A DNA stretch of 64,000 bases. Origin: an uncultured Rikenellaceae bacterium (lineage in GTDB: Bacteria > Bacteroidota > Bacteroidia > Bacteroidales > VadinHA17). Under the pieces are notes generated by a model. It did not search any database, was not told the origin of the DNA, and saw only the letters and a list, made by a program, of their open reading frames with translations. Position numbers and translations under genes: made by a program. Positions 5,752 through 50,999 of this stretch are shown here, in pieces. Positions within the stretch are counted from its first letter, which is position 1, and the number at the start of each line of letters is the position of its first letter. The stretch is from assembly GCA_963696805.1 (NCBI GenBank), contig CAVOLF010000006.1, positions 375,092-439,091 on the forward strand, in the 5' to 3' direction.

Positions 5752-6745
5752 GATGTCTCAGGTAATTGATAAAGGATATTTTCGGCTGACGGCTTTCATA
5801 AAATACGCCCCAGTGCTTTTCCACTTCATCCGGTTCTGAATTTTCTCCTCCGCCCTTCCATGGTTCATCAAATGCTTCAAACAGAAATGTGTTAACCCGG
5901 GTTTTGGTAATCCAGTTGTGCAGATGGATCAGATAGTATTCCTGGGCAGCCATGTCAACGGTGCCTTTAATTAATGAGGCCTGCTCTCCGGGCCCGGTCT
6001 TGCGTGTATTGTAATTCGTTGCCCAGCCTGCCTCGCCTATTACAGTTTCTTTATCAGGATGCATCACCCTGACCTCCTGAAAATATATCCTATCCATCCA
6101 TTCGATGGCATTTTCCAGAGTTATGCCATTCCACATTGAATAAAGATGTGTAACAATAAAGTCTATTTCATCCGCAACCTTTTTGCTGTCAAATGTAATC
6201 CAGAAACTGTAATCATCAGCGGTAGTCACAGGGGCATTTGTGTTATTTCTGACAAGCCTGATGTATTTGATTAAATCCTGCTGATCCATTCTGTGAGCTG
6301 ACCAGGTTACCTGCGTCTCATTTCCCACACAAACGGCAGCAATCAGGTCCGTATACTCATTAGCCAGGTTGATTCCCTGAATGGCCTGGGCAATGTTTTC
6401 CTCTTTCCTTTCCGGGTGCCCGGTTTCATTTTCAAGCCACACCCCGAGCATTACCTTTACAGGGAGATGCTTTCTTCTTATAATCTCTAGTATTCTTGCG
6501 GAGTCTCCATCGGAACTGTACAGCCGGATCAAATTCCAGTGACGCAGTATTATTTGCAGGTCTTCCTCAATTTCAGCAACAGAAGGGCCTTTAATTCCCG
6601 GAGCCTGACCGCTCCGGTAACATCCATAGGATACTGCTTCACCTACCCATTTGCCATTCAGAAGGGGCTCGAATCTGCGAATTACAAAGGGATACTGTCT
6701 GACAACAGAGGATCCCGACTTATCAACCTGAGAGTTCTTCTTCAT
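5699..6745 (-). CDS. Glycoside hydrolase family 17 (beta-1,3-glucanase/transglycosylase-like), no signal peptide
   Basis: 348 aa. Clan GH-A/GH17 motifs CVGNETQV (acid/base Glu) and IGEAGWAT (nucleophile Glu, cf. ETGWP). The N-terminus MKKNSQVDKSGSSVVRQ is not signal-like. The 3' end overlaps the downstream gene start by 53 nt. Confidence 0.8.
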   Translation of the reverse strand: MKKNSQVDKSGSSVVRQYPFVIRRFEPLLNGKWVGEAVSYGCYRSGQAPGIKGPSVAEIEEDLQIILRHWNLIRLYSSDGDSARILEIIRRKHLPVKVMLGVWLENETGHPERKEENIAQAIQGINLANEYTDLIAAVCVGNETQVTWSAHRMDQQDLIKYIRLVRNNTNAPVTTADDYSFWITFDSKKVADEIDFIVTHLYSMWNGITLENAIEWMDRIYFQEVRVMHPDKETVIGEAGWATNYNTRKTGPGEQASLIKGTVDMAAQEYYLIHLHNWITKTRVNTFLFEAFDEPWKGGGENSEPDEVEKHWGVFYESRQPKISFINYLRHHEHREDTTGPDSPETIR

Positions 6746-6771: not shown

Positions 6772-8442
6772 TTAAAGCTGCACGCGCACCGTCTGAACAG
6801 AGTTGGCAACAATCGTCATGTCAGCATACTGATCCTTTATCTGAAGTTTATATGAAATATCTTTCTTCGTCGTATTCAACAGCTGCACACTCAGAACATC
6901 TTCACTGTTAATTGTTGCACAAACATGCAAATCATCTTCTCCGGGTCCCTCAAGCGTTTTGGAGGTCTGAACTGCTCTGTCTCCCGGCCTGATTGTCTTA
7001 CTGAACTGGGCCAGCACGTAAAATACAGGCGTATAGTAAATATGCCCTGTTGCAGTATTTATCATGACGGGGGCACCGCAATAATTACCTACGTGATTTG
7101 GTCCGCCGACATGATCAAGGACAACATTCCAGTCAATCCAGCCTGTCAGCCAATGGTCAATGCTGACGATGATATTTCTTGCATAGCGGTGGACAGGGGT
7201 ATAGACCGGATGGTCTTGGCTTTTTACACCTTCCCAGGTGGCTGAGTATGCCCAATCTGTAGCATTGTCATTCCACCAGAATGAATCATTGTCAAACCAG
7301 TCCTTCTCCATGTAACGTTCCGGATCGGTAATTCCCTGAGGAGCCGGTTTGCCAAGATCATCGATACAACCTTCTGTATGAATGATCTTATTATCCGGGA
7401 ATTTTGCATTGACTCTTTCGAATACGTCTTCGTATACTTTAAAGGTACTTTCATACCAGTGGACCGCCGTGCCATATACATACCCGGATGTTTGACCATC
7501 GGTCAAAATCAGGTCTGTCCATTGTTCGATTCCATCCCTGTTCTGATCATAAATAAGCAATCTGACACTGGCGTTGTCGCCTGACTTCAGTTTCGGCCCA
7601 AGGTATTTTTTTATAAACTCATTCTGTGTCTGAGGTGTGAAATTCATGCTTTCCCATTGACCGTTGTTGCCATGCGGCTCATTGACAGGTGTAATCGCCC
7701 ATATATCAACACCTTCAGACCTGTATTCATTGAGATATCTTATAAGATAGTCAGCGTATGTATTTTCATACTCCTTCTTAAGGCTGCCGCCAGTACCCTG
7801 GTAGTTGTTTTCAGCTGATCCTGTTATGTACCACTCTTCAATATCCTTCATCCATGAAGGGGCAGTCCATGCAGATGCTACTATCCTCAACTCATTATCC
7901 TTCTGTTGGTTCTTAATCTCAATCGCTTCCCTGATCATGGGCAAGAGATCGTAGTTTTCATCCTTAATACCTGGAAAATCAGTTACACTAAATCCCTTAT
8001 TGTCGGGGGCAACACTGAAAGACTCCAGTTTGATGTCTCCCTCTCTGTCGAGGTAGGAATATTTTCCGTTAACAGTAAAGTCACAGGCTCCAATGTGAGT
8101 CCTTGTAAGTGAAAAGTTGGCTCCGTCTTCACTGAAGAGCTTACGCATAACCTCTTTGCGATCAACCGGGTCTATATGTGCGAGTACAAAAGCAGAGGAT
8201 TCAGTGAATGATGATCCTATACCGTCCATCGTCTGCTTCACACTATCGGGTTCTATCCTGATTATGGTCCCCTCGGGTTCCCCCCTGACAAACCCCACAT
8301 TTTCTTTTACGGCAATTTTGTCACCGCTCTCTGAAGTGACGTAAATCTCCTTTGTGGATAACATATTTGTTTTTGTATCGCAAGATTGAATAATAGCCGC
8401 AAAGATAAACAGCAGTGAAATTGAGAAGATTTTTTGTTTCAT
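6772..8442 (-). CDS. Glycoside hydrolase family 30 (beta-1,6-glucanase/glucosylceramidase-like) lipoprotein
   Basis: GH30 motifs ITPVNEPHG (acid/base) and IIHTEGC (nucleophile). I prefer the internal ATG at 8442, which gives the lipobox signal MKQKIFSISLLFIFAAIIQSC. The track ORF extends to 8484. Confidence 0.85.
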   Translation of the reverse strand: MKQKIFSISLLFIFAAIIQSCDTKTNMLSTKEIYVTSESGDKIAVKENVGFVRGEPEGTIIRIEPDSVKQTMDGIGSSFTESSAFVLAHIDPVDRKEVMRKLFSEDGANFSLTRTHIGACDFTVNGKYSYLDREGDIKLESFSVAPDNKGFSVTDFPGIKDENYDLLPMIREAIEIKNQQKDNELRIVASAWTAPSWMKDIEEWYITGSAENNYQGTGGSLKKEYENTYADYLIRYLNEYRSEGVDIWAITPVNEPHGNNGQWESMNFTPQTQNEFIKKYLGPKLKSGDNASVRLLIYDQNRDGIEQWTDLILTDGQTSGYVYGTAVHWYESTFKVYEDVFERVNAKFPDNKIIHTEGCIDDLGKPAPQGITDPERYMEKDWFDNDSFWWNDNATDWAYSATWEGVKSQDHPVYTPVHRYARNIIVSIDHWLTGWIDWNVVLDHVGGPNHVGNYCGAPVMINTATGHIYYTPVFYVLAQFSKTIRPGDRAVQTSKTLEGPGEDDLHVCATINSEDVLSVQLLNTTKKDISYKLQIKDQYADMTIVANSVQTVRVQL

Positions 8443-8489
8443 AATTGTGGTTTTGAAAGTCTTTTTGAGCAAAATCCAGATCACTGAGA

Positions 8490-9377
8490 TCAGGAGTATT
8501 TCAGGTTACCGTCCTTATCCCATAAACCCCAGAAAGCACCCACATCTCCCTCTTTTTCAATCTTCCAGGCTTCATCAAAGCTTGAAAAATACATTATCTC
8601 AATATTCTCCTCCAGGCTCCATTTCTGAGTATTTATGAAATACCGCAGAGCATTGTCGGTTGACGGTTCGGATGCCTCAAAGGCTATACCCATATTTGGC
8701 CATCCGGTCTCACTGATAACCACTCTTTTACCCCTGGCAGCCTGAAGCACACTGAAGTACATGTTTTTCATATAGACCAGTGAATAATCTATATGGCAGC
8801 CTTCCCAGAAGGGATAGCAATTGGTAAACAGTACATCACATGCATCGGTAATCGCCGGCCGGTTGACAAATTCGTAATAGGCATCAACATACCCCACACT
8901 TGCCTCAGGCACCTGTTGCTTAACCCTTTGAATGTATTCCAGTAATTCCTGCTCCGTCAGTTCCTCACGATAAAGAACCTCATTTCCAACAGCAACGAGA
9001 TCTGTATTCCCTTCTTTCACAACCCTTACCAGGTTTTCAATCTCAACTTCGTTATGCTCCTTATCATCACTCAACCATGCCCCTGCCATTACCTTCAGGC
9101 CATTTTCCTTTGCAATCCGAGGAATTAGTTCATGCCCGTCAGTACATGAGAATGTTCTTATCCAGGAAGTATATGGTTTTATTATTTCTATTCTTTGCCT
9201 TATCTGTTCCTCGCTGATAATGCTACCGGGCGACTGTCCCTCAACGTATGAGCTGAAACAAAGACCATGCATTCCATTCTCAAGGTATTTTCTGAACAGT
9301 TTTATTAAGTCGGCAGTTGATTTGTTACTAAAGTCTTCTCCTGTGAGAGACAAAAGTTTTTCGCTTCTGAATGACAT
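8490..9377 (-). CDS. Glycoside hydrolase family 17, second paralogue, no signal peptide
   Basis: 295 aa. Motifs VAVGNEVLY and ISETGWPN (the canonical GH17 nucleophile motif). The hydrophilic N-terminus MSFRSEKLLSLTGEDF suggests a cytoplasmic location. Confidence 0.85.
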   Translation of the reverse strand: MSFRSEKLLSLTGEDFSNKSTADLIKLFRKYLENGMHGLCFSSYVEGQSPGSIISEEQIRQRIEIIKPYTSWIRTFSCTDGHELIPRIAKENGLKVMAGAWLSDDKEHNEVEIENLVRVVKEGNTDLVAVGNEVLYREELTEQELLEYIQRVKQQVPEASVGYVDAYYEFVNRPAITDACDVLFTNCYPFWEGCHIDYSLVYMKNMYFSVLQAARGKRVVISETGWPNMGIAFEASEPSTDNALRYFINTQKWSLEENIEIMYFSSFDEAWKIEKEGDVGAFWGLWDKDGNLKYS

Positions 9378-9516: not shown

Positions 9517-10947
9517 CTATAACTCTCCTCTTCGTGCCACTAACTGCATTTTAATCTCACGGGCCTTCTTTTCTGTAAGGTCATATTTCCACATCACCAG
9601 TATGGCCAGTAATGCCGTTAGTGCAGGAATAGTTATATCAGCAATTCGCAGTTTGGTAATGGTTTCAGCTGTCTGGATGGCAGCATTCTGATCAAATCCG
9701 ACCAGTTTGAGCACCAGGCCACCCAGGACAAGGGCCAGGGCCTGTCCCAACTTGACCATCCACCAGTAGATAGCCCCGAATGTTCCTTCTTTTCGCGGCA
9801 TGCCGTTATTCAATTCATCAAGATCGCATACATCAGCTGTCATGCTCATCATCAGGGTAAACAAACCCCCAATTCCAAATACCATGAGAGGAAGTGGCAT
9901 AAACATCAACCATGGATTTTCCGGGTTAAATCCCCACCATTTAAGTAAGTAACCCACTATCGAAATAAAAGTTGAGATGATAAATGCGTTGCGTTTACCC
10001 ACTCTGTTGGCAATGGCAGAAATAACCGGAATTACCAGGAAGGCAGTAATTATTGCCGATACTGTAGAGAACCAGGCCGGCCAGTTTCCCGCCAGACCAT
10101 AGTCACCCTTGAACATGTAAAATACAATAATGAAATAACTGAACGATGCCACCAGTTGAAAGCCATTGAAGACCAGGAAGGTTGCTCCGCAGAGTCTCAT
10201 AAAGGGAATATTTTTTGACACCTGGACAATTCCTCTGAAAAGATCCATAAGATTGGAAAACAGTGTCTTGTATGTAATCTTGACCCTGCCCTCCATTTTC
10301 GAAGCATCTATCCCTTTGCAGAATATTGCAGGCATTATACCCAGGACAATACAGACAGCGCCTACGATCATGGAGAGTTTTCTAACCCCAATAGCCTGAG
10401 TCTCAAACAGGTTTGGGTTTGCAATCAGCACCCAGAACCACGGTACAATCATCCAGGCAATCTGGCCAAGTGTTTGTGAGAATGCCATTAACCGGGTCCG
10501 CTCATTGTAGTCTGATGTCATTTCATATCCAAGTCCTATCAGTGGCGTGGAAAAAATTGTATTTCCTGTCAGGTATATCAGTGAAAAAATAAGGAAATAC
10601 CAGAAGTTATAGGTCTGGGAATTATCAGGAGAGAGTTGCCACAGGACTGCAAACAGCACTCCGCTTAAAATGGCACCGACAAAGATATAGGGTCTTCTGC
10701 GGCCAAATCTCGATTTTGTATTGTCTGATATAAAACCCATGATAGGGTCTGTAATGGCATCATAAAATCTTGGCAGTCCGCCGAGCAAACCAGCCAGGAA
10801 AGGATCCATTCCGAAGGCAGTCAGTAAAAAGAACATAAATACTCCCAGTGCTCCCGGCAGCAGGTTATTTACCAGATGGCCCGCACCAAATGCCGCTTTC
10901 TGCATCAGGGGCACTCTGTCTTTCTCAGCTGTTGTATAATGATTCAT
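9517..10947 (-). CDS. MFS transporter, glycoside-pentoside-hexuronide (GPH):cation symporter family
   Basis: 476 aa, roughly 12 hydrophobic helices. Has the GPH/MelB-type loop motif DNTKSRFGRRRPYIFVG. Sits inside the glycoside hydrolase cluster. Confidence 0.85.
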   Translation of the reverse strand: MNHYTTAEKDRVPLMQKAAFGAGHLVNNLLPGALGVFMFFLLTAFGMDPFLAGLLGGLPRFYDAITDPIMGFISDNTKSRFGRRRPYIFVGAILSGVLFAVLWQLSPDNSQTYNFWYFLIFSLIYLTGNTIFSTPLIGLGYEMTSDYNERTRLMAFSQTLGQIAWMIVPWFWVLIANPNLFETQAIGVRKLSMIVGAVCIVLGIMPAIFCKGIDASKMEGRVKITYKTLFSNLMDLFRGIVQVSKNIPFMRLCGATFLVFNGFQLVASFSYFIIVFYMFKGDYGLAGNWPAWFSTVSAIITAFLVIPVISAIANRVGKRNAFIISTFISIVGYLLKWWGFNPENPWLMFMPLPLMVFGIGGLFTLMMSMTADVCDLDELNNGMPRKEGTFGAIYWWMVKLGQALALVLGGLVLKLVGFDQNAAIQTAETITKLRIADITIPALTALLAILVMWKYDLTEKKAREIKMQLVARRGEL

Positions 10948-11066: not shown

Positions 11067-11870
11067 CTATTCAACCTCACGGTAGACCCTCACATAATCA
11101 ACATACATCGTTTGAGGGAATGGCGTCTCGGATGTTGGGAAACCCACATAATCGCCTCCAACGGCCACATTGAGAATCATAAAGAAAGGATTGTCAAATA
11201 CCCATTCTCCTGTCAGGTCTTCGGGTTTTATTTCCTGGTAAAGAACATCATCAACGAAGTACTGGATAAAATCAGTGCCCCATTCAACAGCAAATAAATG
11301 GTAATCTGTGTCAAATCGCTTGTCTGCATAACCATAGCTTTTGGTAATTGCTGCACCTCCGGAATAACCAGGGCCGTGAACGCTGCCATTTATAATATTT
11401 GGTTGTTGCCCGCGGTATTCCATAATGTCAATTTCACCGCACTGCGGCCATGGATTGGTTTCTATATCAGCTCCCAGCATCCAGAAAGCCGGCCAGATAC
11501 CCGGCCCCCACGGCAATTTAATGCTTGCCTCAAACCGGCCGTAGGTCTGCTCAAATAACCCGAGTGTTTTAATTCGTGCTGAGGTAAATGTACTACCTGC
11601 TTTTACGGCTGTTATCCGAAGTGCTCCTTCAGCTATGACAACATTCTGAGCATCATCTGTATAGGTCTGCAATTCGTTGTTACCCCAGCCGCCTCCGCCA
11701 AGGTCGAATGACCATTTTGTCTCGTCAGGAGCTCCGGCGGTTTCGAACTCATCCTGCCAGACCAGTTGATAAGTCCTTTTTTCCAGCCCTGATTTATCCT
11801 CACATCCTCCCAATATAAGAAGGACTGGCAGGAGGAGGATGCCTCCGATAAATAATAAACTTGATTTCAT
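11067..11870 (-). CDS. Glycoside hydrolase family 16 laminarinase (endo-beta-1,3-glucanase) lipoprotein
   Basis: 267 aa. Catalytic GH16 motif GEIDIMEY (ExDxxE) and WPAFWMLG. Lipobox LLILGGC. Confidence 0.9.
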   Translation of the reverse strand: MKSSLLFIGGILLLPVLLILGGCEDKSGLEKRTYQLVWQDEFETAGAPDETKWSFDLGGGGWGNNELQTYTDDAQNVVIAEGALRITAVKAGSTFTSARIKTLGLFEQTYGRFEASIKLPWGPGIWPAFWMLGADIETNPWPQCGEIDIMEYRGQQPNIINGSVHGPGYSGGAAITKSYGYADKRFDTDYHLFAVEWGTDFIQYFVDDVLYQEIKPEDLTGEWVFDNPFFMILNVAVGGDYVGFPTSETPFPQTMYVDYVRVYREVE

Positions 11871-11966: not shown

Positions 11967-13934
11967 TTATTTCCAGAGATAAATATTATCATACCACACA
12001 TTAGTCAGATTGGCAGTTGTAATCCCAATCTGAGCAACATCACTTCTTGTCAGATTGCCTGTAACAATTCCTCCTAAAGCAGTTATATCAATATCCACGG
12101 AAACCCATGTACCTGCAACTATTGCCGGTGTTGTTCCTGTATTAATATTAACTTCCAGGGCAGAAGCTTCACCGGCTCCACCTGCAAAATCAACTAGTTT
12201 TACATTGAACACATCCCCTGTCAGGTCAGTATCATCAGTGTAAATATCGAAATGAATATGTGTGAATGAGGATAAATTTTGCCTGTTTGTAGTAAAATCT
12301 ATTCCATGACAGTCTATTCCTGCATTCTTCTTCAGTGTATTATTTCCAGCTATGGATACTTCTGTAACTGCAGCACCTCCGCACCAGCCAGCGTCAAAAT
12401 TATCAACAGTAATATTAGTATAGGCATCACTGTAAATAGAAACCACATTGGAGGCACTGCGTGCAGGAGGTGTTGGTGCGGCTGCAGCTGGTCCTGTGGT
12501 ACCACCGCCGCCGCCGCTGTAGAAGTACAGGTTATCAACAAAGATGGTATTTGCCCCGCTGGGTTGACCCACTAGTATGTACTGGGCCAGATGTGCCCTT
12601 GTTGTAAGACCGGTAAAATCACTCAGGGGAATATCATAGCTCACCCATGTACCCTTGACCGGTGAGGCAAAATTGATCTGGTGTTCAACATCATCCCCGC
12701 CTCCGAATACTCCGTTTGCCCCGAAGTCAACCAGCTTGACCCCGAAATTGGTGATGTCAGCTGACCAGACATCAAGGTGCAGATGGGTCATTGTTGTTGC
12801 ATTTATGGGAGCAGTACCCGTCTCTATCCCTACAAAATTCAGGTCCGAATATTTCTTCGTCGGATTTCCGGCAACAGTCACTTCTTCATAGGTTGCCGCA
12901 GACCAGTCTGTCTTCCATGTATCAACAGCCACATTGGTATACGCTCCGCTGAACATTGAAATCACAGTGGCCTCATCACGCGTCGGCGTCGGAGCCGCTG
13001 CTGCAGGCTCAGTGGCTGATCCACCGCCTCCGCTGTAGAAGTACATGTTATCGACAAAGATGGTATTTGCCCCGCTGGGTTGACCCACTAGTATGTACTG
13101 TGCCAGATGTGCCCTTGTTGTAAGACCGGTAAAATCACTCAGGGGAATATCATAGCTCACCCATACACCCTTGACCGGTGAGGCAAAATTGATCTGGTGT
13201 TCAACATCATCCCCGCCTCCGAATACTCCGTTTGCCCCGAAGTCAACCAGCTTGACCCCGAAATTGGTGATGTCGGCTGACCATACATCAAGGTGCAGAT
13301 GAGTCATGGTTGTTGCATTTATGGGAGTAGTACCCGTCTCTATCCCTACAAAATTCAGGGCAGAATATTTCTTTGTCGGATTTCCGGCAACAGTCACTTC
13401 TTCATAGGTTGCCGCTGACCAGTCTGTCTTCCAGGTATCAACAGCCACGTTGGTATACGCTCCGCTGAACATTGAAATCACTGTGGCCTCATCACGCGTC
13501 GGCGTCGGAGCCGCTGCTGCAGGCTCAGTGGCTGAGCCACCACCTGATTTGTAGAAATAAATATTATCGACATAAAGAGTCCTCAGATTACAGGTAAGTA
13601 CCATCTGAGCAAGGTCCGCTCTTGTCAGGTTTCCGGTAAAAGCTGTAATCGGAACATCTATCGAAACCCATGATCCCGTCTGCAGCGCAGGTATATCTCC
13701 GGTTGGAGTATGAACAACGGTAAGTATATGACTTGTAGCCTCTGCAGTTCCGCCTCCGAAATCAACATTCTTTATTGAAAGTGATTTGGACATTACCTCA
13801 TCCGGTGTCCATATATCAATATGGAAATGTGTCATGCCCGAAGCATCAAATTTATTACTGCTGAAGTCAATACCGGCGAAATTTGTAAATGTATATTTCT
13901 TAACATCATTGCCTGAAATCTGCAAGTCTGCCAC
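11967..13934 (-). CDS. C-terminal fragment of a modular surface glycan-binding protein (modules 3-6 of ~170 aa each)
   Basis: 655-aa ORF whose M is an internal GTG. It starts mid-module (…ADLQISGNDVKKY). Repeated units end in DN[ILMV]YFY plus a Gly-rich/PAAAAPTP linker. No signal peptide. It continues the upstream ORF 14129..15949 after frameshifts. Confidence 0.75.
   Translation of the reverse strand: MADLQISGNDVKKYTFTNFAGIDFSSNKFDASGMTHFHIDIWTPDEVMSKSLSIKNVDFGGGTAEATSHILTVVHTPTGDIPALQTGSWVSIDVPITAFTGNLTRADLAQMVLTCNLRTLYVDNIYFYKSGGGSATEPAAAAPTPTRDEATVISMFSGAYTNVAVDTWKTDWSAATYEEVTVAGNPTKKYSALNFVGIETGTTPINATTMTHLHLDVWSADITNFGVKLVDFGANGVFGGGDDVEHQINFASPVKGVWVSYDIPLSDFTGLTTRAHLAQYILVGQPSGANTIFVDNMYFYSGGGGSATEPAAAAPTPTRDEATVISMFSGAYTNVAVDTWKTDWSAATYEEVTVAGNPTKKYSDLNFVGIETGTAPINATTMTHLHLDVWSADITNFGVKLVDFGANGVFGGGDDVEHQINFASPVKGTWVSYDIPLSDFTGLTTRAHLAQYILVGQPSGANTIFVDNLYFYSGGGGGTTGPAAAAPTPPARSASNVVSIYSDAYTNITVDNFDAGWCGGAAVTEVSIAGNNTLKKNAGIDCHGIDFTTNRQNLSSFTHIHFDIYTDDTDLTGDVFNVKLVDFAGGAGEASALEVNINTGTTPAIVAGTWVSVDIDITALGGIVTGNLTRSDVAQIGITTANLTNVWYDNIYLWK
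12516..13547 (-). repeat. In-frame tandem duplication, 2 x 516 bp (172 codons), about 96% identical
   Basis: Copy 12516-13031 versus copy 13032-13547 align base for base with roughly 20 mismatches. Both encode …PAAAAPTPTRDEATVISMFSGAYTNVAVDTWKTDWSAATYEEVTVAGNPTKKYS…FVDN[ML]YFYSGGGG. Confidence 0.9.
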
Positions 13935-14128
13935 ATCTGAATCATCCCAGATCAGCTGACCATGTACTGACGCTTCTGTTAGTATATGCGTTACTGAAGA
14001 GAGAGATTACGTCAGCAGCATCTCTTGCCGGCGGTGCAGGAGCAGCCACTGCAGGGACAATCCGGCGTACCTCCTGCCAGTATAGAAATATATATTATCA
14101 AGATATATATCACCGTTACCGTCGAACT

Positions 14129-15949
14129 TCAGCTGTATAATATCAGCCAGATTAACCGGTGACAAAGCTGAGCCAGTGGAATATCAACGCTTACCCAGCC
14201 TGTTGTAGGTACGGTCAGTGAATAGGCCTTTTCCACAGGGCCGGGACTTATCAGGAAAACATTGAGTCCTGTGGAGTTCACTGTCCAGAAGTCCAGATGC
14301 AAATACTCCATGCCCGTAACATTCTGACTCGATGCCAGTTGCATGCCCTGGTAATTCAATCCTGCAAATTTCAGGGTGTTGTTTCCGGCTACAGTCACTT
14401 CAGAAACCACCGTTGCCTGGCCCCAGTCGGGGTAGTCGGTGCCTGGTAAATTAGCATATGCATCACCGTAAAGTGAGATCACGTCAGCTGCATCCCTGGC
14501 CGGGGGCGCAGGAGCAGCCTCTGCAGGTACAGTAGGCGTACCACCTCCGTTACCGTAAAAATAGACATTGTCGAGGTAGAATCCTGTCAGGGATGATCCA
14601 AGGCGTTCGAGAATTATCTGAGCCAGTTTACTTCTGGAAGATAACCCGGCAAGGGCAATATCAACACTTATCCAGCTTTGCGATGCCAGCGGCCCTGCAA
14701 TTTCATAAACAAGCGTCGGATCGTTGCCATCAAGGCCTCCGTCGGGCCCCATATCCACCAGTTTTACCGCCAGTCTGTCTGCCGGGTCCACCGCATTTGG
14801 AATCCAGATGTCCATATGAAGGTGAGTCATGGTAGTGGCATTGATTGTTGGTGATGTAAACTGAATACCAACAAAATTGAAATTGTTATAAAACAATACA
14901 GCATCACCCTCAACAGTGAAATCTGCTGAAGTGGTAGTCTGGTAAGGTTGCCAGTAACCATTGTAGAAATCTACAGGCACATTTACGTACTGATTGCTGA
15001 AGATGGAAATAACATCTTCCTGCTCTGCTGCAGGGACCGGGGCGTGAGTAAAATCACCCGAAGACTGAACTGTCAGAGACCCTTCAGCATCTTCACCGCC
15101 GGAAGTGGCAGTAATAACAGCTGTTCCTTCACTCAGTACAGAAACCAGTCCTGTTGCATCCACACTTGCCACCCCTGCATTTGATGAAGCGAATGTAAAA
15201 TATGCAGGTGCTGCAACAACTGTCTGGTCAATCCCGGTTGGCATATTGAATGAAACTTTCAATCCGCCGACAGGAAACTTCAATCCGTTTACGGCTGATT
15301 CAACCCTGTCATTTCCGTCGAGTATTATAGGTTGCCGGTGAGCAATTGTACCAAGCTTTTCAAATTTCACTTCATCAATCCAGAATGTATAACCCTTTCC
15401 ATCCTCAGGACCTTCTGAATAAAAGAACATTCCCTTCTCCTGAGTTAACCGGGAAGGGTCAGGAATAGGTATAATATATTTCTTCCAGTTTGAATTCACT
15501 GCGACATTTTGCATTGAAACAAGGTACTTTGATTCACCCAGATCATTGCCAAACCCCACCAGGTCAATGGTTGCTGATTTTGATGCCCTGGCCCAGAAAG
15601 TAAGTGCATCGTAACCAGACAAATCACGTCCGACTGTGGTAAAGTATGTGCCACCTGCGTAAGCGCCCTGAGGATCCTCATAATCAGGAACTTCAAATCT
15701 CATTGATGCTGATCCTTCATATTTTACTTCAGTATCCACATCAAAAGCGGTTACTTTGGAACCACCAAACGCCGCGTACTTTAAGCCTGCACTGAAACCA
15801 TCAATAAACACCTCAGGTGTAGTCGGGTAAGATGCCAGCTCCAGTTCTTCAAAGTCCCTCGTGCAGCTACCTGAGCCTGCAAGTGTCATAGCAGTAATCA
15901 GGGCAATCGCTGACCAGTTATATTTCCTGTTTTTCATTTTAGTCTCCAT
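14129..15949 (-). CDS. N-terminal fragment of the same modular glycan-binding lipoprotein (signal, CBM-like domain, Big_2-like Ig domain, modules 1-2)
   Basis: 606 aa. Lipobox AMTLAGSGSC (probable start at the MKNRKY Met). Ig-like stretch GVASVDATGLVSVLSEGTAVITATSGG. The ORF ends with out-of-frame junk (…AQLCHRLIWLILYS*), while a shifted frame continues the module as PVNLADIIQLKFDGNGDIYLDNIYFYTG. Confidence 0.75.
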   Translation of the reverse strand: METKMKNRKYNWSAIALITAMTLAGSGSCTRDFEELELASYPTTPEVFIDGFSAGLKYAAFGGSKVTAFDVDTEVKYEGSASMRFEVPDYEDPQGAYAGGTYFTTVGRDLSGYDALTFWARASKSATIDLVGFGNDLGESKYLVSMQNVAVNSNWKKYIIPIPDPSRLTQEKGMFFYSEGPEDGKGYTFWIDEVKFEKLGTIAHRQPIILDGNDRVESAVNGLKFPVGGLKVSFNMPTGIDQTVVAAPAYFTFASSNAGVASVDATGLVSVLSEGTAVITATSGGEDAEGSLTVQSSGDFTHAPVPAAEQEDVISIFSNQYVNVPVDFYNGYWQPYQTTTSADFTVEGDAVLFYNNFNFVGIQFTSPTINATTMTHLHMDIWIPNAVDPADRLAVKLVDMGPDGGLDGNDPTLVYEIAGPLASQSWISVDIALAGLSSRSKLAQIILERLGSSLTGFYLDNVYFYGNGGGTPTVPAEAAPAPPARDAADVISLYGDAYANLPGTDYPDWGQATVVSEVTVAGNNTLKFAGLNYQGMQLASSQNVTGMEYLHLDFWTVNSTGLNVFLISPGPVEKAYSLTVPTTGWVSVDIPLAQLCHRLIWLILYS

Positions 15950-15959
15950 TTATTTATGG

Positions 15960-18900
15960 TTACATGCCTATGTTAAAATGTAAGTATGTCCTTATCTCCC
16001 ATTCATTTCCGTTTGGATAGCCGGGCACTGTGGGGTCACAGACCATGTCTCCGTTTACGTCTATATTTTTTGTCGGACAGTAGCGGGGAGAATACTGGTC
16101 AAGAGAACGCCAGTTAAACCGGATTCCGATACGGGTCTGAGGCAGGTCAACCCACTTCGGCTTTGCAACAAAAGTTGAAAGGTCTGCCTTTATCTGCAAC
16201 GGGTAGGTCAGGTTGAAGTCGCGGTGATAATCATAAGGGCCCCAATCGTTGACCTTAACCATTGATATCAGTTTGGTCTTTTTGTAAATCATCCTGAGGT
16301 CGCCCCCATAGCGTTTGATCAATCGTACGTCGCTGCCATTAGACTCAGCCGTCCCGGCAAAGAGGTTGGCAATCAAACCCAGGTTTGAATTTGCCTTTGA
16401 CACTATCCGCGCATATGCTTCCCAGAGGTCGCGTGCAGGAGGAGCACCGGCGAAGGCAAAAGTTGCCCGGCCGTCTGCCAGAATTCCAATAGCAGCGTCC
16501 TGAGTTGTCGGATGGTGACGGTATACGAATCCGGCGCTCATTGCAAAAGGAGCATCTTCGGCCTCATCGTTATCCCATTCGTACATCCATGTGGCAGGTG
16601 TCGGGTCATATGTAAGGAGGAATTCCCCTGCCACGGTTTCCCTGTTATGTCTTACGGCGAAGGGATCATCAAGAATATTTCTTGCTCTTCCCGGAGCCGG
16701 CACATCTCCCGGCACGGGACCAATTACAGGCTTTTGCCACAGGAAGTTGGGCGCAAACTGAAAATCACCTACCAGCAGGGTCAGTCCCGTAAGAAAGTTG
16801 AACTGGTTGCCGCTTCCGCTGTCCTTGAGCCTCCATCCGGTGTAAGTCTTTGTATAGTCGGCACCTCCCCCGGCTACCAGTCCCATGGCGGCCCCCTGGG
16901 CATACCAGTTTACCGGTCCGGCCGAGAGTGTCACTTTAGCCTTGCCACCCCATGTATCATTTGAATTGATTTGATCTTCATATACAGTATAGTTACCTGT
17001 CTCTCCTTCAACTAACTGGAAAGTCTCACCCACTCTGGGCTGACCTGCCCATATACCGCCAATTTCAATGCCAACAGATCCCATTTGCCTTTTAATATGC
17101 AAAGTGGTTCTCCTTGTTGGCGGTGAGGGTATTGCAAAAGAACTCACTGCCGGTGCCTGTTCATCAAGATCCTCATGATAAATGCCGGTCAGGTCAAATC
17201 CGCCAACCTTCCTGCTGTATTTGACCAGTACCGCAGGATTGGCTCCCCACCAGAGTTCCGGTCCGAAGGCAACTTTCAAGCCATTCAGCGACCTCTTCCC
17301 GTCAATTTCAAAGCCGAAAGGTGCTTCACCGTTATAAATATCCATATTCGGACCGTAGTTGGCTTCCGGGTACAACCCGAAGAAGTCTCCCTCATAACCC
17401 CAGTGATAATGACCTGTACGGTAAAAACTTGTGAGGTCAAACAACTTGCTGTTCCAGGTGAATTCCGCACTGTACACTTTAACGCGGTTCAATGCTGACA
17501 ACATCAGATTGCCATCATCTGTATTCACCTCGCGGGGACGGCCCCTGTTCTCATAGAAAATCTCATCAATCGGATTCCCGGCAATATTACCGAGGACATT
17601 TAAAGCAACTTCCCCCCGTAGATTGGGAGCAGGATTTGCTTCTACATTTACATAAAATGACTGCATGTGATCAAAACCCAGTTGATCGGGATATTTCAAA
17701 GCTCCCGGAACAGCGTCAACCGGTGTTGAGATCCGGTTACCGCCTGTGCTGAACGTTGAGAGCTCAGCCCTCAGTCCGCTGATGCGGACTTTTTTCACCT
17801 GCTCGCCTACCAGCGCCGCTTTATCACCTCGCGCCTGCAGGACTGCGCTGCTTATTTCGATGTTTGAGAAATGGGTATCTATTGATTTGAGAGAGATGCC
17901 ATCAGCATAGGGGTTCAGAAAATGAACCTCCCTGAGGGCATAATAGGCCGCACGCGGGAAAAGCTGGTAAAGACCACGTTCGTTCGTTGGACCTTTGGCA
18001 CAGATCCCGAACCACTCCTCGTTCATATTGTTTTCACCTGCAACATAATCGTGCAGGTAACCACCGTTGGACCAGGAAGCATTGTTATCCTGAACATCGA
18101 GGTTAGTGGTCTGACCAAATTTCCACCAGCCGTCGCTAAACTGGAATGTAAAGCCCCCGATAGAGTTGCCTGCCTTGCCCAGGCCTGCAGCATTCTCGTA
18201 GATCTCCTTCCAGTTGTTTACCATGTAATAAGCCTGAGACTGCTGATCTTCTGCATTTTCAACGGCACTGAATGCATCCGCACCAAATTCAGTGAACATG
18301 ATCGGAACGTTCAGGATATCCTTGACTCTCTGGAAAGCATCACCAAATGATGCTCCGCGGTACATGTTCACGCCAAAGATCTCAACGTCCTTGCACTCTT
18401 CTGCAATGATATCCAGGAAAAGCAAATCACCGTTGCAGATTGCAACAGGATGTGACGAATCAATATCCTTCATCACATTCACTGCCTCATTGAAAAGTTT
18501 GTACAAATGAGTTGCCCGGCCTGTTGATTTCCTGTCTTCCACCGGAATATCTTCGGTTTCAGCACCCTCCCAGAAAAGGCCATAATTGTTTTCATTCCCC
18601 AGCAGAAACATAAGCAAACCGGGTGTATCCTTATATTCATTGACCATCTCTGATACCTCTGATATCAGCAAATCGCGGACACGCGGATCTGAATATTCAG
18701 TATTCGCAACCCACTTGCCGCTCAGAGTCAGTCCATACCGCCCGAACGAATGGTTGAGCATGGTATATATGCCGTAATTCTCATACATATATTTAATCCA
18801 TTTTGGAGGTACACCGGTATACTGACGCACTGCATTGACACCCATATTCCTGAGCAGGGACATCTCTGCATCAAGTGCAGCTTTGATGACGTCGTCAGAC

Positions 18901-19106
18901 TGCTTCCAGAGACTATAGGTAACAGTGGTGCCTATCGGGAAGTAATCCCAGTTCATGCCGTTGATCATAAAATCCGCCCCGTTGACAACCAATTTCATTC
19001 CATCATCGGTTCTAGTAACAGCCACACGGTCACCCTGGGCATTCAAGACTGTTGACAACATAAATAAGAGAAGTACTAATCGCAGAAAAAGGAGATTTTT
19101 TTTCAT
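15960..19106 (-). CDS. Secreted two-part protein: N-terminal clan GH-A (beta/alpha)8 glycosidase domain fused to a ~600-aa Gly/aromatic-rich putative outer-membrane beta-barrel
   Basis: 1,048 aa. SPI signal …VLNA/QG. GH-A catalytic pattern LLGNENNYG (Asn-Glu acid/base) and IMFTEFGADAF (nucleophile Glu). From about aa 430 there are 20 or more short alternating-hydrophobic segments (VKVYSAEFTW, LKVAFGPELWWG, VGIEIGGIWA, RIGIRFNWRS, EWEIRTYLHFNI) and no hydrophobic helices. Confidence 0.6.
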   Translation of the reverse strand: MKKNLLFLRLVLLLFMLSTVLNAQGDRVAVTRTDDGMKLVVNGADFMINGMNWDYFPIGTTVTYSLWKQSDDVIKAALDAEMSLLRNMGVNAVRQYTGVPPKWIKYMYENYGIYTMLNHSFGRYGLTLSGKWVANTEYSDPRVRDLLISEVSEMVNEYKDTPGLLMFLLGNENNYGLFWEGAETEDIPVEDRKSTGRATHLYKLFNEAVNVMKDIDSSHPVAICNGDLLFLDIIAEECKDVEIFGVNMYRGASFGDAFQRVKDILNVPIMFTEFGADAFSAVENAEDQQSQAYYMVNNWKEIYENAAGLGKAGNSIGGFTFQFSDGWWKFGQTTNLDVQDNNASWSNGGYLHDYVAGENNMNEEWFGICAKGPTNERGLYQLFPRAAYYALREVHFLNPYADGISLKSIDTHFSNIEISSAVLQARGDKAALVGEQVKKVRISGLRAELSTFSTGGNRISTPVDAVPGALKYPDQLGFDHMQSFYVNVEANPAPNLRGEVALNVLGNIAGNPIDEIFYENRGRPREVNTDDGNLMLSALNRVKVYSAEFTWNSKLFDLTSFYRTGHYHWGYEGDFFGLYPEANYGPNMDIYNGEAPFGFEIDGKRSLNGLKVAFGPELWWGANPAVLVKYSRKVGGFDLTGIYHEDLDEQAPAVSSFAIPSPPTRRTTLHIKRQMGSVGIEIGGIWAGQPRVGETFQLVEGETGNYTVYEDQINSNDTWGGKAKVTLSAGPVNWYAQGAAMGLVAGGGADYTKTYTGWRLKDSGSGNQFNFLTGLTLLVGDFQFAPNFLWQKPVIGPVPGDVPAPGRARNILDDPFAVRHNRETVAGEFLLTYDPTPATWMYEWDNDEAEDAPFAMSAGFVYRHHPTTQDAAIGILADGRATFAFAGAPPARDLWEAYARIVSKANSNLGLIANLFAGTAESNGSDVRLIKRYGGDLRMIYKKTKLISMVKVNDWGPYDYHRDFNLTYPLQIKADLSTFVAKPKWVDLPQTRIGIRFNWRSLDQYSPRYCPTKNIDVNGDMVCDPTVPGYPNGNEWEIRTYLHFNIGM

Positions 19107-19451: not shown

Positions 19452-22394
19452 TCATATCTGCATCAGATAGTCTACGATGTTTACACTTCGGTCAAGTTTC
19501 AATTTCTTTCTCAGGCGATACCGGCTTATCTCAACTCCGCGGAACGAGATGTTCATAAGAGGGGCAATCTCTTTGGTTGAGACATTCATCCTCAGGTAAC
19601 TGCAAAGCCTTAATTCACCGGGTGTTAATTCCGGATGTATTCTTTTTAAACGGGAATGAAACTCCTGGTGGACCTCATCAAAATACCGGTCAAAAACTTC
19701 CCAGTTCTTTTCATTCTGAATATCCCGATCGATCTTTCGGATAATTCTTTTCAGCTCGCTGACAATAATATCATTTTTTGTTACCGGCATCATTGCCGAC
19801 AACTCCTGTTTAAGGGAATTTAGAAATTTATTTTTCTGTATGATATGGTAAGTAGCTGTAGCAAGCTCTTTGTTCTTATGTTTCATGTCAGACTGCAGCC
19901 TTTCATTTTTAAGCTGAATTATCTCCTTTTCCGCTGCCAGCTTCTGTTCCTCAAATGTTTGCTCTGTTTTTCTGAATGCATTAAGTTGCTTATTCTTTTC
20001 CTGCAACCTGATTTTGCCAATTCTTCGGACATATAAATAAACGCCTGCCAGGATGATTCCGGACAGCAATATGAAATATAATATCAGGGCTATATATGAC
20101 CTGGCGAAAGGAGGTTCAACAATAAAATAATACCTGTCGACCGAGCTGACATTATTGTAAATGTTTTTTGCCTTCACTTCGAAAAAGTAGTCTCCTTCGC
20201 GCAGATTGGTATACTCCTTCCCGTTTGTGGTGGTCCAGTCTGACCAGTTGTCTTCAAAATTGTCCAGGCGGTAACTGTATTGAATATGACCGGTATTCTC
20301 CATATCCGGTGAATTGAACCTGAATGATATATTATTCCAGGAATGAGGTATTGAGAAATTGCCTTTAAGCTCCCGTTTATCAATGTGGGAATTGCCGGAG
20401 GAATACCATAGTGTATCTTCACGCTTGGAAGAAATGCGAACCCGGTTGATATAAACATGCATTTCGTCAAAGTAGTCTTTATAGATCAAAGGATCATAGT
20501 GAACGAGGCCATTCTGAGTACCAATGTAGATATTACCCTGATCCTGAATATATATGTTGTCAAAGGGAGAAACCCGGGCACTGTTCAGGTCAAGAAAGGG
20601 TGTGGAAATATTAGTATATGTCCCATCTTCAAGCAGACGCAATACGCCCATCCCCTCCCTGGCTGAGTACCACAAATTCCGATTGCTGTCTTCTTTCAGA
20701 AGATATATAAGCTCCAAATCGCCAAAAAAATTGTTCAATTCGTCAGGTTTGTAGAAATGCTCACTCTCCTCGTCAAACTGGTATATACCCTGATTGGTGG
20801 AAATGAAAAAATCACCTCTTGATTCATGCAAAAAATAAGGCAACTCCGCGGGAAGGTTGTTGGAACCCCTGTACTCTTTTACAGAAATAACACTGTCAAG
20901 GCTTTCATTGAGGTGAAGACGAAACAGCCCCAGATATCCGTGACTTATCCATAACCAGTTATCCCCGGCGATTTTCAAATCCTTTGAAGAGACGTCGAAT
21001 CCCTTAACCTTCTTCCTGAACTTCCATTTTCCATCTCCACCTTTAGCGAAAGTTATAAATCCGTCATATGTGCCACTTATAAGCAGATTTTCATGGCCCG
21101 GAATTTTATTGAAGTTCCAGACACCCCTGGTATTAGTAAGCTTTTTTGACTGTAACCCGTCAATCGAATAGGCTCCGTTGTGATGCCCGCATAGCAACTG
21201 CCCGTCTGTGACCGTAAGATTCCAGACCTGCCCTTCCATGCCTTCAACCAGGTCGTACTTAATATTAATTTGACTTCTGAGCTTGACAAGTTCTTTTGTG
21301 AACAGACCCTGATTGGTCCCGATATATAGTCTGCCTTCATGGATAGCCGTTGCATAAGTGGCAGCAATGTTGAAATTATCATTGATAACAGAGGTGGGAA
21401 GACTTGTTTTCAGGAAATCAATTCCAATATCAAGTCCCAGCCAGACATTATTCTGACGGTCGACAAACAGAGACAATACTGTGTTGTTCTGCAACCCATT
21501 TGAGCGGCTCAGATGCTCCAGTATCTCCCCTCTATCATTCACTACAATTAATCCACTCTTGATGGTGCCGAACAGATATGTATTGTTGTGAAAGGAACCG
21601 CAATAGAGCTTGGATTTTATAAGCTCCCCGGTTATTTCAGTATCCCAGCGCCGCAATTTTTGATCAGAGAGTATATACAACCCGTTGTTCATAGTCCCTA
21701 TCAGAAGGTCGTTCGCATTGAAAGGTGTGAGTGAATTAATTTCATCGGTTGTGAATAAAAGATCATCCGTAACAGTGCGCAGGGTGTCATTTATCAAGAC
21801 CCTGAGGCCAACCCCTGTTTCAACCACATAATAGTCGTTGTTTACATAAAATGAATTTCCAAATCTTTCCTTTGGCTTAATTACCTGAATGGTGTTGTTT
21901 CTATAGATGAAAATGGACTCGAAGCTCTGGAAAACAACCCCGAACCTTGTCTGGTAAATATTCCAGACGTCATCAAAATTCCTTGAATCTTCCGGAATGA
22001 GATGATTTAAAGTATAATATCCAGTTCCAGTTCTCTCCGATTTTTCAAGCACTCCAATTTCATTGTATGCTCCCACATACACTTTCTTATCAGTACCGTA
22101 TGCAAGCGACCTGATTATCGAATTATTGGATGCAGGAAATATCTCCCAATCTTCACCATCGAATTTCAGTATCCCGTTATTGTTTGCCACATAAATATTC
22201 CCCTGTTCATCATCAACAATATTCCAGTTCTGAGTACCCCCTCTGTATTCACTCCTTTCGATATTCCATATTTCAGGAACCCCGATTGATTTAAACTGAC
22301 CGGAGATACTGAGCGTTTGAACAACAGACAAGATTACTGGAATTATTGTCCTGAACTTCTTAAGCAACCTGATTGCAGATGATATAATTGTCAT
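19452..22394 (-). CDS. Membrane-spanning one-component regulator: periplasmic beta-propeller/Y_Y_Y sensor, TM helix, coiled coil, LuxR-type HTH
   Basis: 980 aa. N-terminal signal/anchor and repeated propeller-like units (NNGLYIL, GTQNGLVHYD). Y_Y_Y-type segment YSYRLDNFEDNWSDW…EGDYFFEVKA. TM segment YIALILYFILLSGIILAGVYLYV. C-terminal GerE/LuxR HTH LTPGELRLCSYLRMNVSTKEIAPLMNISFRGVEISRYRLRKKL. Confidence 0.85.
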   Translation of the reverse strand: MTIISSAIRLLKKFRTIIPVILSVVQTLSISGQFKSIGVPEIWNIERSEYRGGTQNWNIVDDEQGNIYVANNNGILKFDGEDWEIFPASNNSIIRSLAYGTDKKVYVGAYNEIGVLEKSERTGTGYYTLNHLIPEDSRNFDDVWNIYQTRFGVVFQSFESIFIYRNNTIQVIKPKERFGNSFYVNNDYYVVETGVGLRVLINDTLRTVTDDLLFTTDEINSLTPFNANDLLIGTMNNGLYILSDQKLRRWDTEITGELIKSKLYCGSFHNNTYLFGTIKSGLIVVNDRGEILEHLSRSNGLQNNTVLSLFVDRQNNVWLGLDIGIDFLKTSLPTSVINDNFNIAATYATAIHEGRLYIGTNQGLFTKELVKLRSQINIKYDLVEGMEGQVWNLTVTDGQLLCGHHNGAYSIDGLQSKKLTNTRGVWNFNKIPGHENLLISGTYDGFITFAKGGDGKWKFRKKVKGFDVSSKDLKIAGDNWLWISHGYLGLFRLHLNESLDSVISVKEYRGSNNLPAELPYFLHESRGDFFISTNQGIYQFDEESEHFYKPDELNNFFGDLELIYLLKEDSNRNLWYSAREGMGVLRLLEDGTYTNISTPFLDLNSARVSPFDNIYIQDQGNIYIGTQNGLVHYDPLIYKDYFDEMHVYINRVRISSKREDTLWYSSGNSHIDKRELKGNFSIPHSWNNISFRFNSPDMENTGHIQYSYRLDNFEDNWSDWTTTNGKEYTNLREGDYFFEVKAKNIYNNVSSVDRYYFIVEPPFARSYIALILYFILLSGIILAGVYLYVRRIGKIRLQEKNKQLNAFRKTEQTFEEQKLAAEKEIIQLKNERLQSDMKHKNKELATATYHIIQKNKFLNSLKQELSAMMPVTKNDIIVSELKRIIRKIDRDIQNEKNWEVFDRYFDEVHQEFHSRLKRIHPELTPGELRLCSYLRMNVSTKEIAPLMNISFRGVEISRYRLRKKLKLDRSVNIVDYLMQI

Positions 22395-23132: not shown

Positions 23133-23200
23133 ACCTCCGCAAGCCCGGTAACCGGCGGGAGTGCAAATGATTGAACAGGGACCGGAAACAGGATACTGTA

Positions 23201-23755: not shown

Positions 23756-23774
23756 AAACTCAATACCAGAACCT

Positions 23775-46781: not shown

Positions 46782-46798
46782 TGAGAGGGAGACTGAAG

Positions 46799-50966: not shown

Positions 50967-50999
50967 GCCTCCAAGTTACATAATATACATATATTGCTT

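Follow-up and report, generated by a model that had tools for sequence, protein, structure and literature searches.

The gene at 15960..19106 on the minus strand of a 64-kb stretch of DNA from an uncultured Rikenellaceae bacterium (contig CAVOLF010000006.1; the whole 64,000-nucleotide stretch that was analyzed is called the window here) is predicted to encode an outer-membrane protein. The reading that we prefer, with a probability of about 0.58, is that of a TonB-independent channel for beta-1,3-gluco-oligosaccharides that carries a tethered glucanase on its periplasmic side. Laminarin is among the most abundant marine glycans, and its uptake by Bacteroidota is taught as a matter of SusC/SusD pairs powered by TonB. 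The outer-membrane location is predicted from the signal peptide, the strand pattern and the fold matches, and the combination of a channel with an enzyme is plausible on the models. The precursor is made up as follows:

15960..19106, minus strand: whole target gene, encoding a 1,048-aa precursor, with the stop codon at 15960-15962.
19038..19106, minus strand: signal peptide, residues 1-23, with cleavage between LNA and Q and no lipobox, as read from the sequence.
17907..19037, minus strand: (beta/alpha)8 domain of clan GH-A, residues ~24-400, resembling glycoside hydrolase (GH) family 158, from Pfam, Foldseek and profile comparison with the PDB.
18591..18593, minus strand: codon of E172, the predicted acid/base in the GNE motif, from the hidden Markov model (HMM) alignment to GH158(Pro); invariant.
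18288..18290, minus strand: codon of E273, the predicted nucleophile in the TEFG motif, from the HMM alignment to GH158(Pro); invariant.
17790..17906, minus strand: linker, residues 401-439, with two helices (~406-414 and ~418-436) before strand 1, from DSSP of both models.
15963..17789, minus strand: ~26-stranded outer-membrane beta-barrel, residues 440-1048, from AlphaFold2, Foldseek and the strand pattern.

The original prediction, which had been made from the letters of the sequence, described a 1,048-aa product with a cleavable signal peptide, and this was confirmed. The N-terminus reads MKKNLLFLRLVLLLFMLSTVLNA with a cleavage site of the signal peptidase I type in front of QGD, and inspection of the sequence revealed no lipobox Cys. 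Among 5.8 billion proteins searched, the target had more than 5,255 homologous clusters (defined at 90% identity), and the 120 matches listed were ~1,030-1,077 aa long, covered 97-100% of the query and were 70-92% identical to it (E = 0). Since so many full-length homologous clusters exist, the target is not a chance open reading frame (ORF). In an alignment of 58 homologues the conservation spanned the whole length of the protein, and across bacteroidotal orders the identity to the target was 63-92% in the protein search and the genome scan.

From residue 440 onwards the protein was all-beta, with ~26 long antiparallel strands in both AlphaFold2 runs, in agreement with the earlier claim that the ~600 C-terminal residues resemble an outer-membrane barrel. 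Residues 430-1048 were searched against 1.84 billion cluster representatives, which gave 517 clusters at E <= 0.001; distant representatives of these were aligned, and the alignment was then used to gather further homologues. An earlier full-length run, for which the alignment was shallow (sequences of 70% identity or more), was mediocre (predicted local distance difference test, pLDDT, 69; predicted template modeling score, pTM, 0.50), and its C-terminal fold matches were already outer-membrane barrels. It was superseded by a model of residues 400-1048 (649 residues), built from a diverse alignment of 85 sequences, with 26 long strands, a pLDDT of 85.3 and a pTM of 0.82. All of the 50 best Foldseek matches of this C-domain model in the PDB were integral outer-membrane barrels (MOMP, BtuB, chitoporin (7vu2), OprD/Occ, AlgE, PfeA/PirA, LptD and PapC), with low template modeling (TM) scores of 0.17-0.37, so that the barrel has no close solved relative. 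One face of the strands was 70% hydrophobic and the other 29%, and two-residue turns followed the even-numbered strands and loops of 6-36 residues the odd-numbered ones, as is usual where the turns are periplasmic and the loops external. No Pfam or NCBIfam model matched the C-domain or five to six stand-alone relatives, and hence the barrel cannot be placed in a named outer-membrane protein family; on the model, residues 440-1048 form a ~26-strand barrel of an unnamed outer-membrane family that lacks a Pfam model.

The most conserved parts of the barrel were specific loops, rich in aromatic and acidic residues, which scored 3.1-3.6 bits vs 2.2-2.4 bits for the strands. These were HYHWGYEGDFFGLYPE… (3.1 bits), LWWGANP (3.6 bits), DPTPATWMYEWDNDEAEDAPF (3.2 bits) and GPYDYHRDFNL (3.2 bits). 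Such a conservation of loops over strands is the reverse of what is found in ordinary porins, and it points to a functional barrel interior. The linker was less conserved (1.6 bits). In addition, two almost invariant Cys, residues 1010 and 1023 (window ~16038-16079), are located in the last long external loop, RYCPTKNIDVNGDMVCDP, and this pair suggests a conserved disulfide.

The N-terminal domain was analyzed next to the barrel. The clan GH-A pattern noted in the original prediction was found at residues 170-176 (GNENNYG) and 270-275 (MFTEFG), and a (beta/alpha)8 barrel extended over residues ~28-400 in the full-length AlphaFold2 model. The best Foldseek match of the enzyme domain in the PDB was GH158(Pro) (9p26, E 3.2e-12, TMt 0.55), followed by the GH157 laminarinase LaGH157 (9g5g, E 2.5e-10), with GH2 glucuronidases ranking lower. 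When the PDB was searched with a diverse profile, i.e., an alignment that included the distant fused subfamily described below, the matches were GH158(Pro) (E 5.4e-8), BuGH158 (6pal; E 1.5e-5) and, only at E 1.6e-4 or weaker, GH2 beta-galactosidases; the two GH158 matches span only ~140 residues at ~13% identity. A profile from close homologues found GH158 weakly (E 0.004), and a single-sequence phmmer search found a GH2 beta-galactosidase alone (E 1e-4). In GH158(Pro) the acid/base is Glu143 and the nucleophile Glu229 (PDB 9ORO/9P25). In the HMM alignment the Glu of GNE and the Glu of TEFG pair with chain positions 135 and 221 of 9oro_A, which correspond to these published residues, because a constant offset of 8 separates the chain index from the published numbering. 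Both E172 and E273 were invariant in the 58 homologues, so that the catalytic pair, whose possible lack the original prediction had listed against itself, is present. The solved GH158 enzymes (GH158(Pro), BuGH158) act on polymeric beta-1,3-glucan and have an immunoglobulin (Ig)-like domain after the triosephosphate isomerase (TIM) barrel, and GH158(Pro) is reported as processive. In the target models this Ig-like domain is absent; its place is taken by the helical residues 401-439 and then the membrane barrel. From sequence and model, the enzyme domain is in all probability an active beta-1,3-glucanase of the retaining type from the GH158/GH157 neighborhood; a formal assignment to GH158 would be premature, as the similarity is weak and the Ig-like domain is missing.

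The only Pfam match in the target was a weak one to GH2_C (PF02836; E 2e-6, 27 bits, residues 75-281), and the homologues bear the database names 'glycosidase', 'GH2 TIM barrel domain-containing' and 'beta-galactosidase'. These names, as well as the GH2 beta-glycosidase of the Muricauda paper cited below, would suit an ordinary secreted multi-domain glycosidase, with the 600 C-terminal residues forming beta-sandwich, carbohydrate-binding module (CBM) or Ig domains. However, no CBM or Ig model of Pfam matched, and the C-terminus, for which the original prediction had itself named a soluble array as the contrary outcome, was confidently modeled as a single up-and-down 26-strand sheet whose 50 best fold matches are membrane barrels. 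Furthermore, the N-terminal sugar-binding and Ig-like domains of GH2 enzymes were not found in the target by Pfam or in the model, the TIM barrel coming directly after the signal peptide. The GH2 identity was rejected, given the single weak PF02836 match and the lack of GH2 N-terminal domains, and the soluble C-terminus, which is hardly credible, was rejected on the membrane-barrel fold.

The barrel is an independent module that also occurs without the enzyme. Representatives of 564-598 aa that lack the enzyme domain were found in the C-domain search. Each of three (P0190, P0227 and P0199) carries a signal peptide of its own and begins a few residues ahead of strand 1, the C-termini being …YKF, …YSF and …KTF, respectively, which is the classic proteobacterial beta-signal. 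The stand-alone ends overall were ...KF, ...SF, ...TF and ...SY, with a terminal F or Y, and the stand-alone homologues are probably proteobacterial. The P0199 gene is followed by genes for an SBP_bac_5 binding protein, a permease, two ATPases, a LacI regulator and a GH16, and P0253 is likewise located directly 5′ of SBP_bac_5. In the maltose and chitobiose systems, too, the gene of a specific porin lies directly upstream of one for a periplasmic binding protein, and the proximity of stand-alone barrels to SBP_bac_5 genes speaks for the barrel as an uptake channel. P0227 (L082 1356-5946) lies directly after the type II secretion genes T2SS F, G and I, and not beside an ATP-binding cassette (ABC) importer.

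The target gene was placed by the original prediction between the locus regulator and a surface glycan-binding lipoprotein, and this was borne out; the regulator gene lies upstream, and the start codon of the lipoprotein is 10 nt past the target stop. The genes from 22394 down to base 1 are all on the minus strand:

19452..22394, minus strand: BguR-type one-component regulator (Reg_prop, Y_Y_Y, GerE), from Pfam.
11967..15949, minus strand: surface glycan-binding lipoprotein gene (lipobox, Big_2, repeated CBM-like units), split into two ORFs.
14129-15949, minus strand: Big_2 lipoprotein ORF, 606 aa, …GSGSC/TRD.
11967-13934, minus strand: 655-aa ORF with repeated CBM-like units.
11067..11870, minus strand: GH16 endo-beta-1,3-glucanase lipoprotein, LGGC/EDK.
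9517..10947, minus strand: MFS_2 sugar transporter of the major facilitator superfamily (MFS), inner membrane, from Pfam.
8490..9377, minus strand: GH17, no signal peptide.
6772..8484, minus strand: GH30 with a lipoprotein signal.
5699..6745, minus strand: GH17, no signal peptide.
2293..5751, minus strand: GH149 beta-1,3-glucan phosphorylase, no signal peptide, NCBIfam NF058639 (1654 bits).
3..2075, minus strand: GH3 beta-glucosidase, its 3′ end cut by the window start.

The original prediction had seen no SusC/SusD pair in the 22 kb available to it; neither Pfam nor phmmer with SusC/SusD queries found a TonB-dependent receptor, a SusC or a SusD in the whole window. The plug domain, the TonB box and the CarboxypepD_reg N-domain were not found in the target by Pfam, and true SusC proteins of related loci show all of them. 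To the possibility that a pair belonging to this locus lies just past base 1, the window gives a partial answer: none is encoded within it, the gene at base 1, where the window ends, is the GH3 gene, and an Rfam scan of 1-2400, the region holding this gene as it runs off base 1, gave no match. The domain architecture of the 19452-22394 regulator matches that of BguR, a membrane-spanning regulator of the one-component type from Formosa agariphila, which needs it to grow on laminarin and to induce the laminarin locus (bioRxiv 10.64898/2026.01.10.698779). The laminarin locus of F. agariphila is also said to hold a 'GH158' (bioRxiv 10.64898/2026.01.10.698779); in a search with the Flaviramulus orthologue Formosa was not among the 120 matches listed, and no tie to that 'GH158' was obtained. 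The N-termini indicate a division of labor, the GH16, the Big_2 protein and the GH30 being lipoproteins, and both GH17s and the GH149 lacking a signal peptide, so that periplasmic endo-cleavage may depend on the barrel-fused domain. The glycan-binding lipoprotein gene is split by a frame change near 14171 into the 606-aa ORF and the 655-aa ORF, the latter without a start signal. A locus related at 85% (L001) encodes a single 1,318-aa lipoprotein, and its tblastn match changes frame at ~14171; hence the two ORFs are halves of one gene, the frame change being a genuine frameshift or else an indel from sequencing or assembly.

When genomes were scanned, one for each species, at least 595 stretches proved to encode a relative, and the synteny survey covered the best 80 of these with flanks of +/-10 kb (1.26 Mb in total), at least 8 kb being available on both sides in 47 of the 80. 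The best 80 came from Bacteroidales, Marinilabiliaceae, Saprospiraceae, Chitinophagales, Cytophagales, Flavobacteriales, Sphingobacteriia, Calditrichota and Melioribacteraceae. A homologue of the CBM lipoprotein was encoded directly 3′ of the barrel gene in 77 loci, and in the other three the contig ends too soon. A GH16 came next in 70/80, and then GH149, GH17, GH30 and MFS genes in varying order. Other large ORFs that were checked encoded PKD/CBM4_9 surface proteins, GH81, AcrB, UvrA and similar proteins. SusC/SusD pairs, counted by phmmer with Pfam-confirmed SusC and SusD proteins as queries, were present within 10 kb in four loci (L033, L035, L053 and L067), all from Flavobacteriaceae; the remaining 76 encode no other outer-membrane component. 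The claim that the fusion holds the SusC/SusD position thus stands for the window and for these 76 loci, and does not for the four that carry both. A published Muricauda laminarin locus has the same order (LuxR, 'GH2', GH16, GH149, GH17, GH30, MFS, GH17); that paper describes no SusC/SusD and treats the 'GH2' as an ordinary beta-glycosidase (AEM 2026). One surveyed locus contains a single ORF (L056 20120-22234, plus strand) that matches both the MFS transporter and GH17, i.e., an MFS-GH17 fusion like that of Formosa sp. Hel1_33_131 described below.

A second fused subfamily, of ~1,040 aa and 27-34% identical to the target, was assigned, where named, to Gammaproteobacteria, Chromatiales and Leucothrix. 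Two of its loci also encode GH16, GH3, GH17, GH30, MFS and a small downstream lipoprotein; one is on a contig labeled Pseudomonadota, and the other on a contig that also encodes proteins with type IX secretion system (T9SS) tails. The small lipoproteins (203 aa, L086 13135-13746; 244 aa, L087 13284-14018) share 36% identity; Pfam gave no match for them, and BLAST no similarity to the bacteroidotal CBM lipoprotein. The barrel may have in them a dedicated partner.

The distribution bears on the role of the barrel. The barrel could be an anchor only, plugged by its own loops, which tethers a periplasmic or surface glucanase to the membrane while sugars enter through general porins or through SusC/SusD encoded elsewhere. 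The long conserved loops, ~200 residues in all, might occupy the lumen, SusC/SusD pairs do occur in some loci, and the survey reached +/-10 kb. However, stand-alone barrels directly upstream of ABC-importer binding proteins have the classic position of specific porins, a 600-residue, 26-strand barrel kept at 63-92% identity across bacteroidotal orders would be a costly anchor, and 76 of the 80 loci offer no other outer-membrane component, so we regard an anchor as quite improbable. Export of a cell-made beta-glucan, with the enzyme trimming the product as in PgaA/PgaB, BcsC/BcsZ and AlgE/AlgL, was also considered; pairs of a porin and a periplasmic hydrolase are typical of exopolysaccharide systems, and AlgE is among the fold matches. 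Against this, neither the target locus nor related loci encode a glycosyltransferase or synthase, the neighbors are all catabolic (GH16, GH17, GH30, GH3, GH149 phosphorylase, MFS or ABC importers), and the regulator is of the type needed for laminarin growth and laminarin-locus induction in F. agariphila. The chance of an exporter is very slight, and this reading was rejected on the catabolic context.

The side on which the enzyme is located was deduced from the strand order. With 26 strands and a periplasmic C-terminus, the N-end of strand 1 would be periplasmic, and so the enzyme would be periplasmic by default, unless helix 418-436 threads the lumen. The periplasmic side is also favored because stand-alone barrels need no threaded segment, and because a periplasmic enzyme-porin fusion needs no new export route; on the models we hold the periplasmic side moderately likelier than the surface. 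This orientation, deduced from loop parity in the model, is the weakest step of the reading. It goes against the surface depolymerization proposed in the original prediction, and the GH16 lipoprotein, rather than the target, is more likely the surface endo-glucanase of the locus. If helix 418-436 did thread the lumen, as in type V autotransporters, the enzyme would be displayed at the surface, laminarin would be cut outside and the products would drop into the barrel. This possibility agrees with the presence of a 19-residue helix directly before strand 1, with the N-terminal CBM4_9 of some relatives and with the action of solved GH158 enzymes on polymeric beta-1,3-glucan, and the co-occurrence with SusC/SusD in four loci makes sense for a surface enzyme. 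Loop parity, however, sets the N-end of strand 1 in the periplasm, stand-alone barrels do without passenger or helix, Pfam found no autotransporter or POTRA signature in the target, the locus already has the surface GH16 lipoprotein, and display requires a new export mechanism where the periplasmic fusion requires none. Surface display is therefore unlikely, yet it keeps a real share of the probability.

Several points weigh against a periplasmic, channel-forming module in general. Helix 418-436, right before strand 1, resembles the threaded linker of autotransporters, and BuGH158 is reportedly a surface lipoprotein in Bacteroides, which, like the CBM4_9 at the N-terminus of some relatives (P0234), would fit a surface location. 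The four Flavobacteriaceae loci that carry both the barrel gene and SusC/SusD imply that the module is not simply a SusC/SusD substitute, and a laminarin SusC/SusD pair could be encoded elsewhere in the genome, beyond the window. The target ends in …TYLHFNIGM, with no terminal aromatic residue. Closure of the barrel, the content of its lumen and the position of the linker helix are presumptive, and the reading is computational throughout.

With the periplasmic reading, the locus would operate as follows. The multi-CBM surface lipoprotein would bind laminarin and the GH16 lipoprotein would nick it, so that fragments could enter via the barrel, which we infer to be a TonB-independent, substrate-specific channel for beta-1,3-gluco-oligosaccharides. 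The sugar path would be formed by long loops, rich in aromatic residues and highly conserved, that fold into the lumen. The glucanase, hanging from the periplasmic end of strand 1, would cut the emerging chains, which would block back-diffusion and yield pieces small enough for the MFS transporter; a processive periplasmic glucanase would thereby give directionality to diffusion. The products would be imported by the MFS protein, and the cytoplasmic GH17s and GH149, together with GH3, would take the degradation to its end. For most lineages, the module would stand in for the SusC/SusD of canonical loci.

The target was compared with known systems. It shares with the GH158 enzymes (GH158(Pro), 9ORO/9P25; BuGH158, 6PAL) the (beta/alpha)8 fold of clan GH-A, the catalytic Glu pair and the occurrence in beta-1,3-glucan loci, but at ~13% identity (profile E 5e-8), with two helices and a 600-residue barrel where these have the Ig-like domain, and, unlike BuGH158, it is not a lipoprotein. 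As in SusC/SusD utilisomes, its gene is the first structural one past the regulator and precedes those of a surface glycan-binding lipoprotein and a surface endo-glucanase, and the presumed role, outer-membrane passage of oligosaccharides, is shared. In contrast to SusC, which has 22 strands, it has ~26, it has no plug, TonB box, carboxypeptidase-like N-domain or SusD partner (the downstream gene being that of the Big_2/CBM-repeat lipoprotein), its enzyme is covalently fused, and its family also occurs outside Bacteroidota. With the sugar-specific porins (LamB/ScrY, ChiP, CymA, OprB, KdgM/NanC) it has in common a TonB-independent barrel in a sugar catabolic locus, the position of stand-alone relatives directly upstream of a binding protein and ABC importer, and a chitoporin (7vu2) among the top fold matches. 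These porins, however, have 12-18 strands vs 26 and show no sequence relation by Pfam, and the target, a putative sugar channel, adds an enzyme domain. The target falls outside both the sugar-porin and the SusC families, because their defining features were tested and are absent. We propose that it acts like a sugar-specific porin of the LamB/ChiP type plus a pathway enzyme, in the genomic slot of SusC/SusD and probably in the functional one too.

The type V autotransporters, including the PlpD-type patatin-POTRA-Omp85 proteins, also place an enzyme N-terminal to a barrel with a helix before strand 1. Their barrels have 12 or 16 strands and Autotransporter (PF03797) or POTRA/Omp85 signatures, which are absent from the target, and they export the passenger, whereas the target-type barrel also occurs passenger-free. 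LptD and MtrB (9i92 and 6r2q, both among the fold matches of the full-length model, MtrB with the top TMq, 0.28) are 26-strand barrels of similar strand number and size, and LptD has an N-terminal periplasmic domain; the TM-scores are low, no sequence similarity was found, and cargo (lipopolysaccharide, cytochrome) and partners differ. In Formosa sp. Hel1_33_131 a laminarin-pathway glycosidase is likewise fused to a transporter (MFS-GH17; Unfried et al. 2018, PMC6246565), which the authors name a transporter-CAZyme (carbohydrate-active enzyme) fusion; that is an alpha-helical secondary transporter of the inner membrane, whereas the target is a beta-barrel of the outer membrane. What the same paper calls a 'porin' (Unfried et al. 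2018, PMC6246565) belongs to a nitrogen cluster and is unrelated. The nearest precedents of the fusion are the Formosa inner-membrane MFS-GH17 and the enzyme-barrel autotransporters. The original prediction knew of no characterized glycosidase-porin fusion, and indeed no paper was found in the literature that describes such a fusion, recognizes this barrel, suggests that it takes part in transport or reports TonB-independent laminarin uptake.

The family is huge and strongly conserved. The fusion always lies in beta-1,3-glucan loci, most of them devoid of SusC/SusD, and takes the slot of that pair there; this suggests that an alternative way of importing laminarin, an algal sugar polymer, is widespread. 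The databases and at least one paper label it just 'GH2' or 'glycosidase', i.e., it is mis-annotated, and whatever its function it represents a new outer-membrane barrel family without a Pfam model. If the barrel is an import channel, counts of SusC/SusD or of TonB-dependent transporters would underestimate the laminarin users in metagenomes and metaproteomes, predictors of polysaccharide-utilization loci that demand a SusC/SusD pair would miss these loci, and the covalent channel-enzyme would be a clean system for studying how a polymer crosses without TonB energy. A more far-reaching possibility is that the GH158-type glucanase at the periplasmic mouth of the 26-strand channel is processive and reels in beta-1,3-glucan by hydrolysis, as a ratchet, with the downstream lipoprotein as an external lid or receptor. 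The module would then replace SusC/SusD in most non-flavobacterial Bacteroidota laminarin loci, would also work in Gammaproteobacteria, and would amount to a second, TonB-independent paradigm of import. We put this forward as speculation that is rather unlikely to hold in full; if true, the family would be a major unrecognized conduit in marine and sediment carbon turnover.

Past the regulator the window contains unrelated genes (arginine decarboxylase, NrfH/NrfA, GH35, PHO4 and others). The NrfH/NrfA nitrite reductase genes are at 23171-25238 and those of a NuoF-like subunit and an Fe-only hydrogenase at 44988-48577, both on the plus strand, and to judge by these the host would seem to be one of the Bacteroidales, either anaerobic or facultative; the best genome match was an uncultured Bacteroidales metagenome-assembled genome at 85% identity. 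Finally, a protein with the patatin-POTRA-Omp85 architecture of PlpD-like type Vd autotransporters, which matches those Pfam models, is encoded at 50994-53330 on the plus strand.

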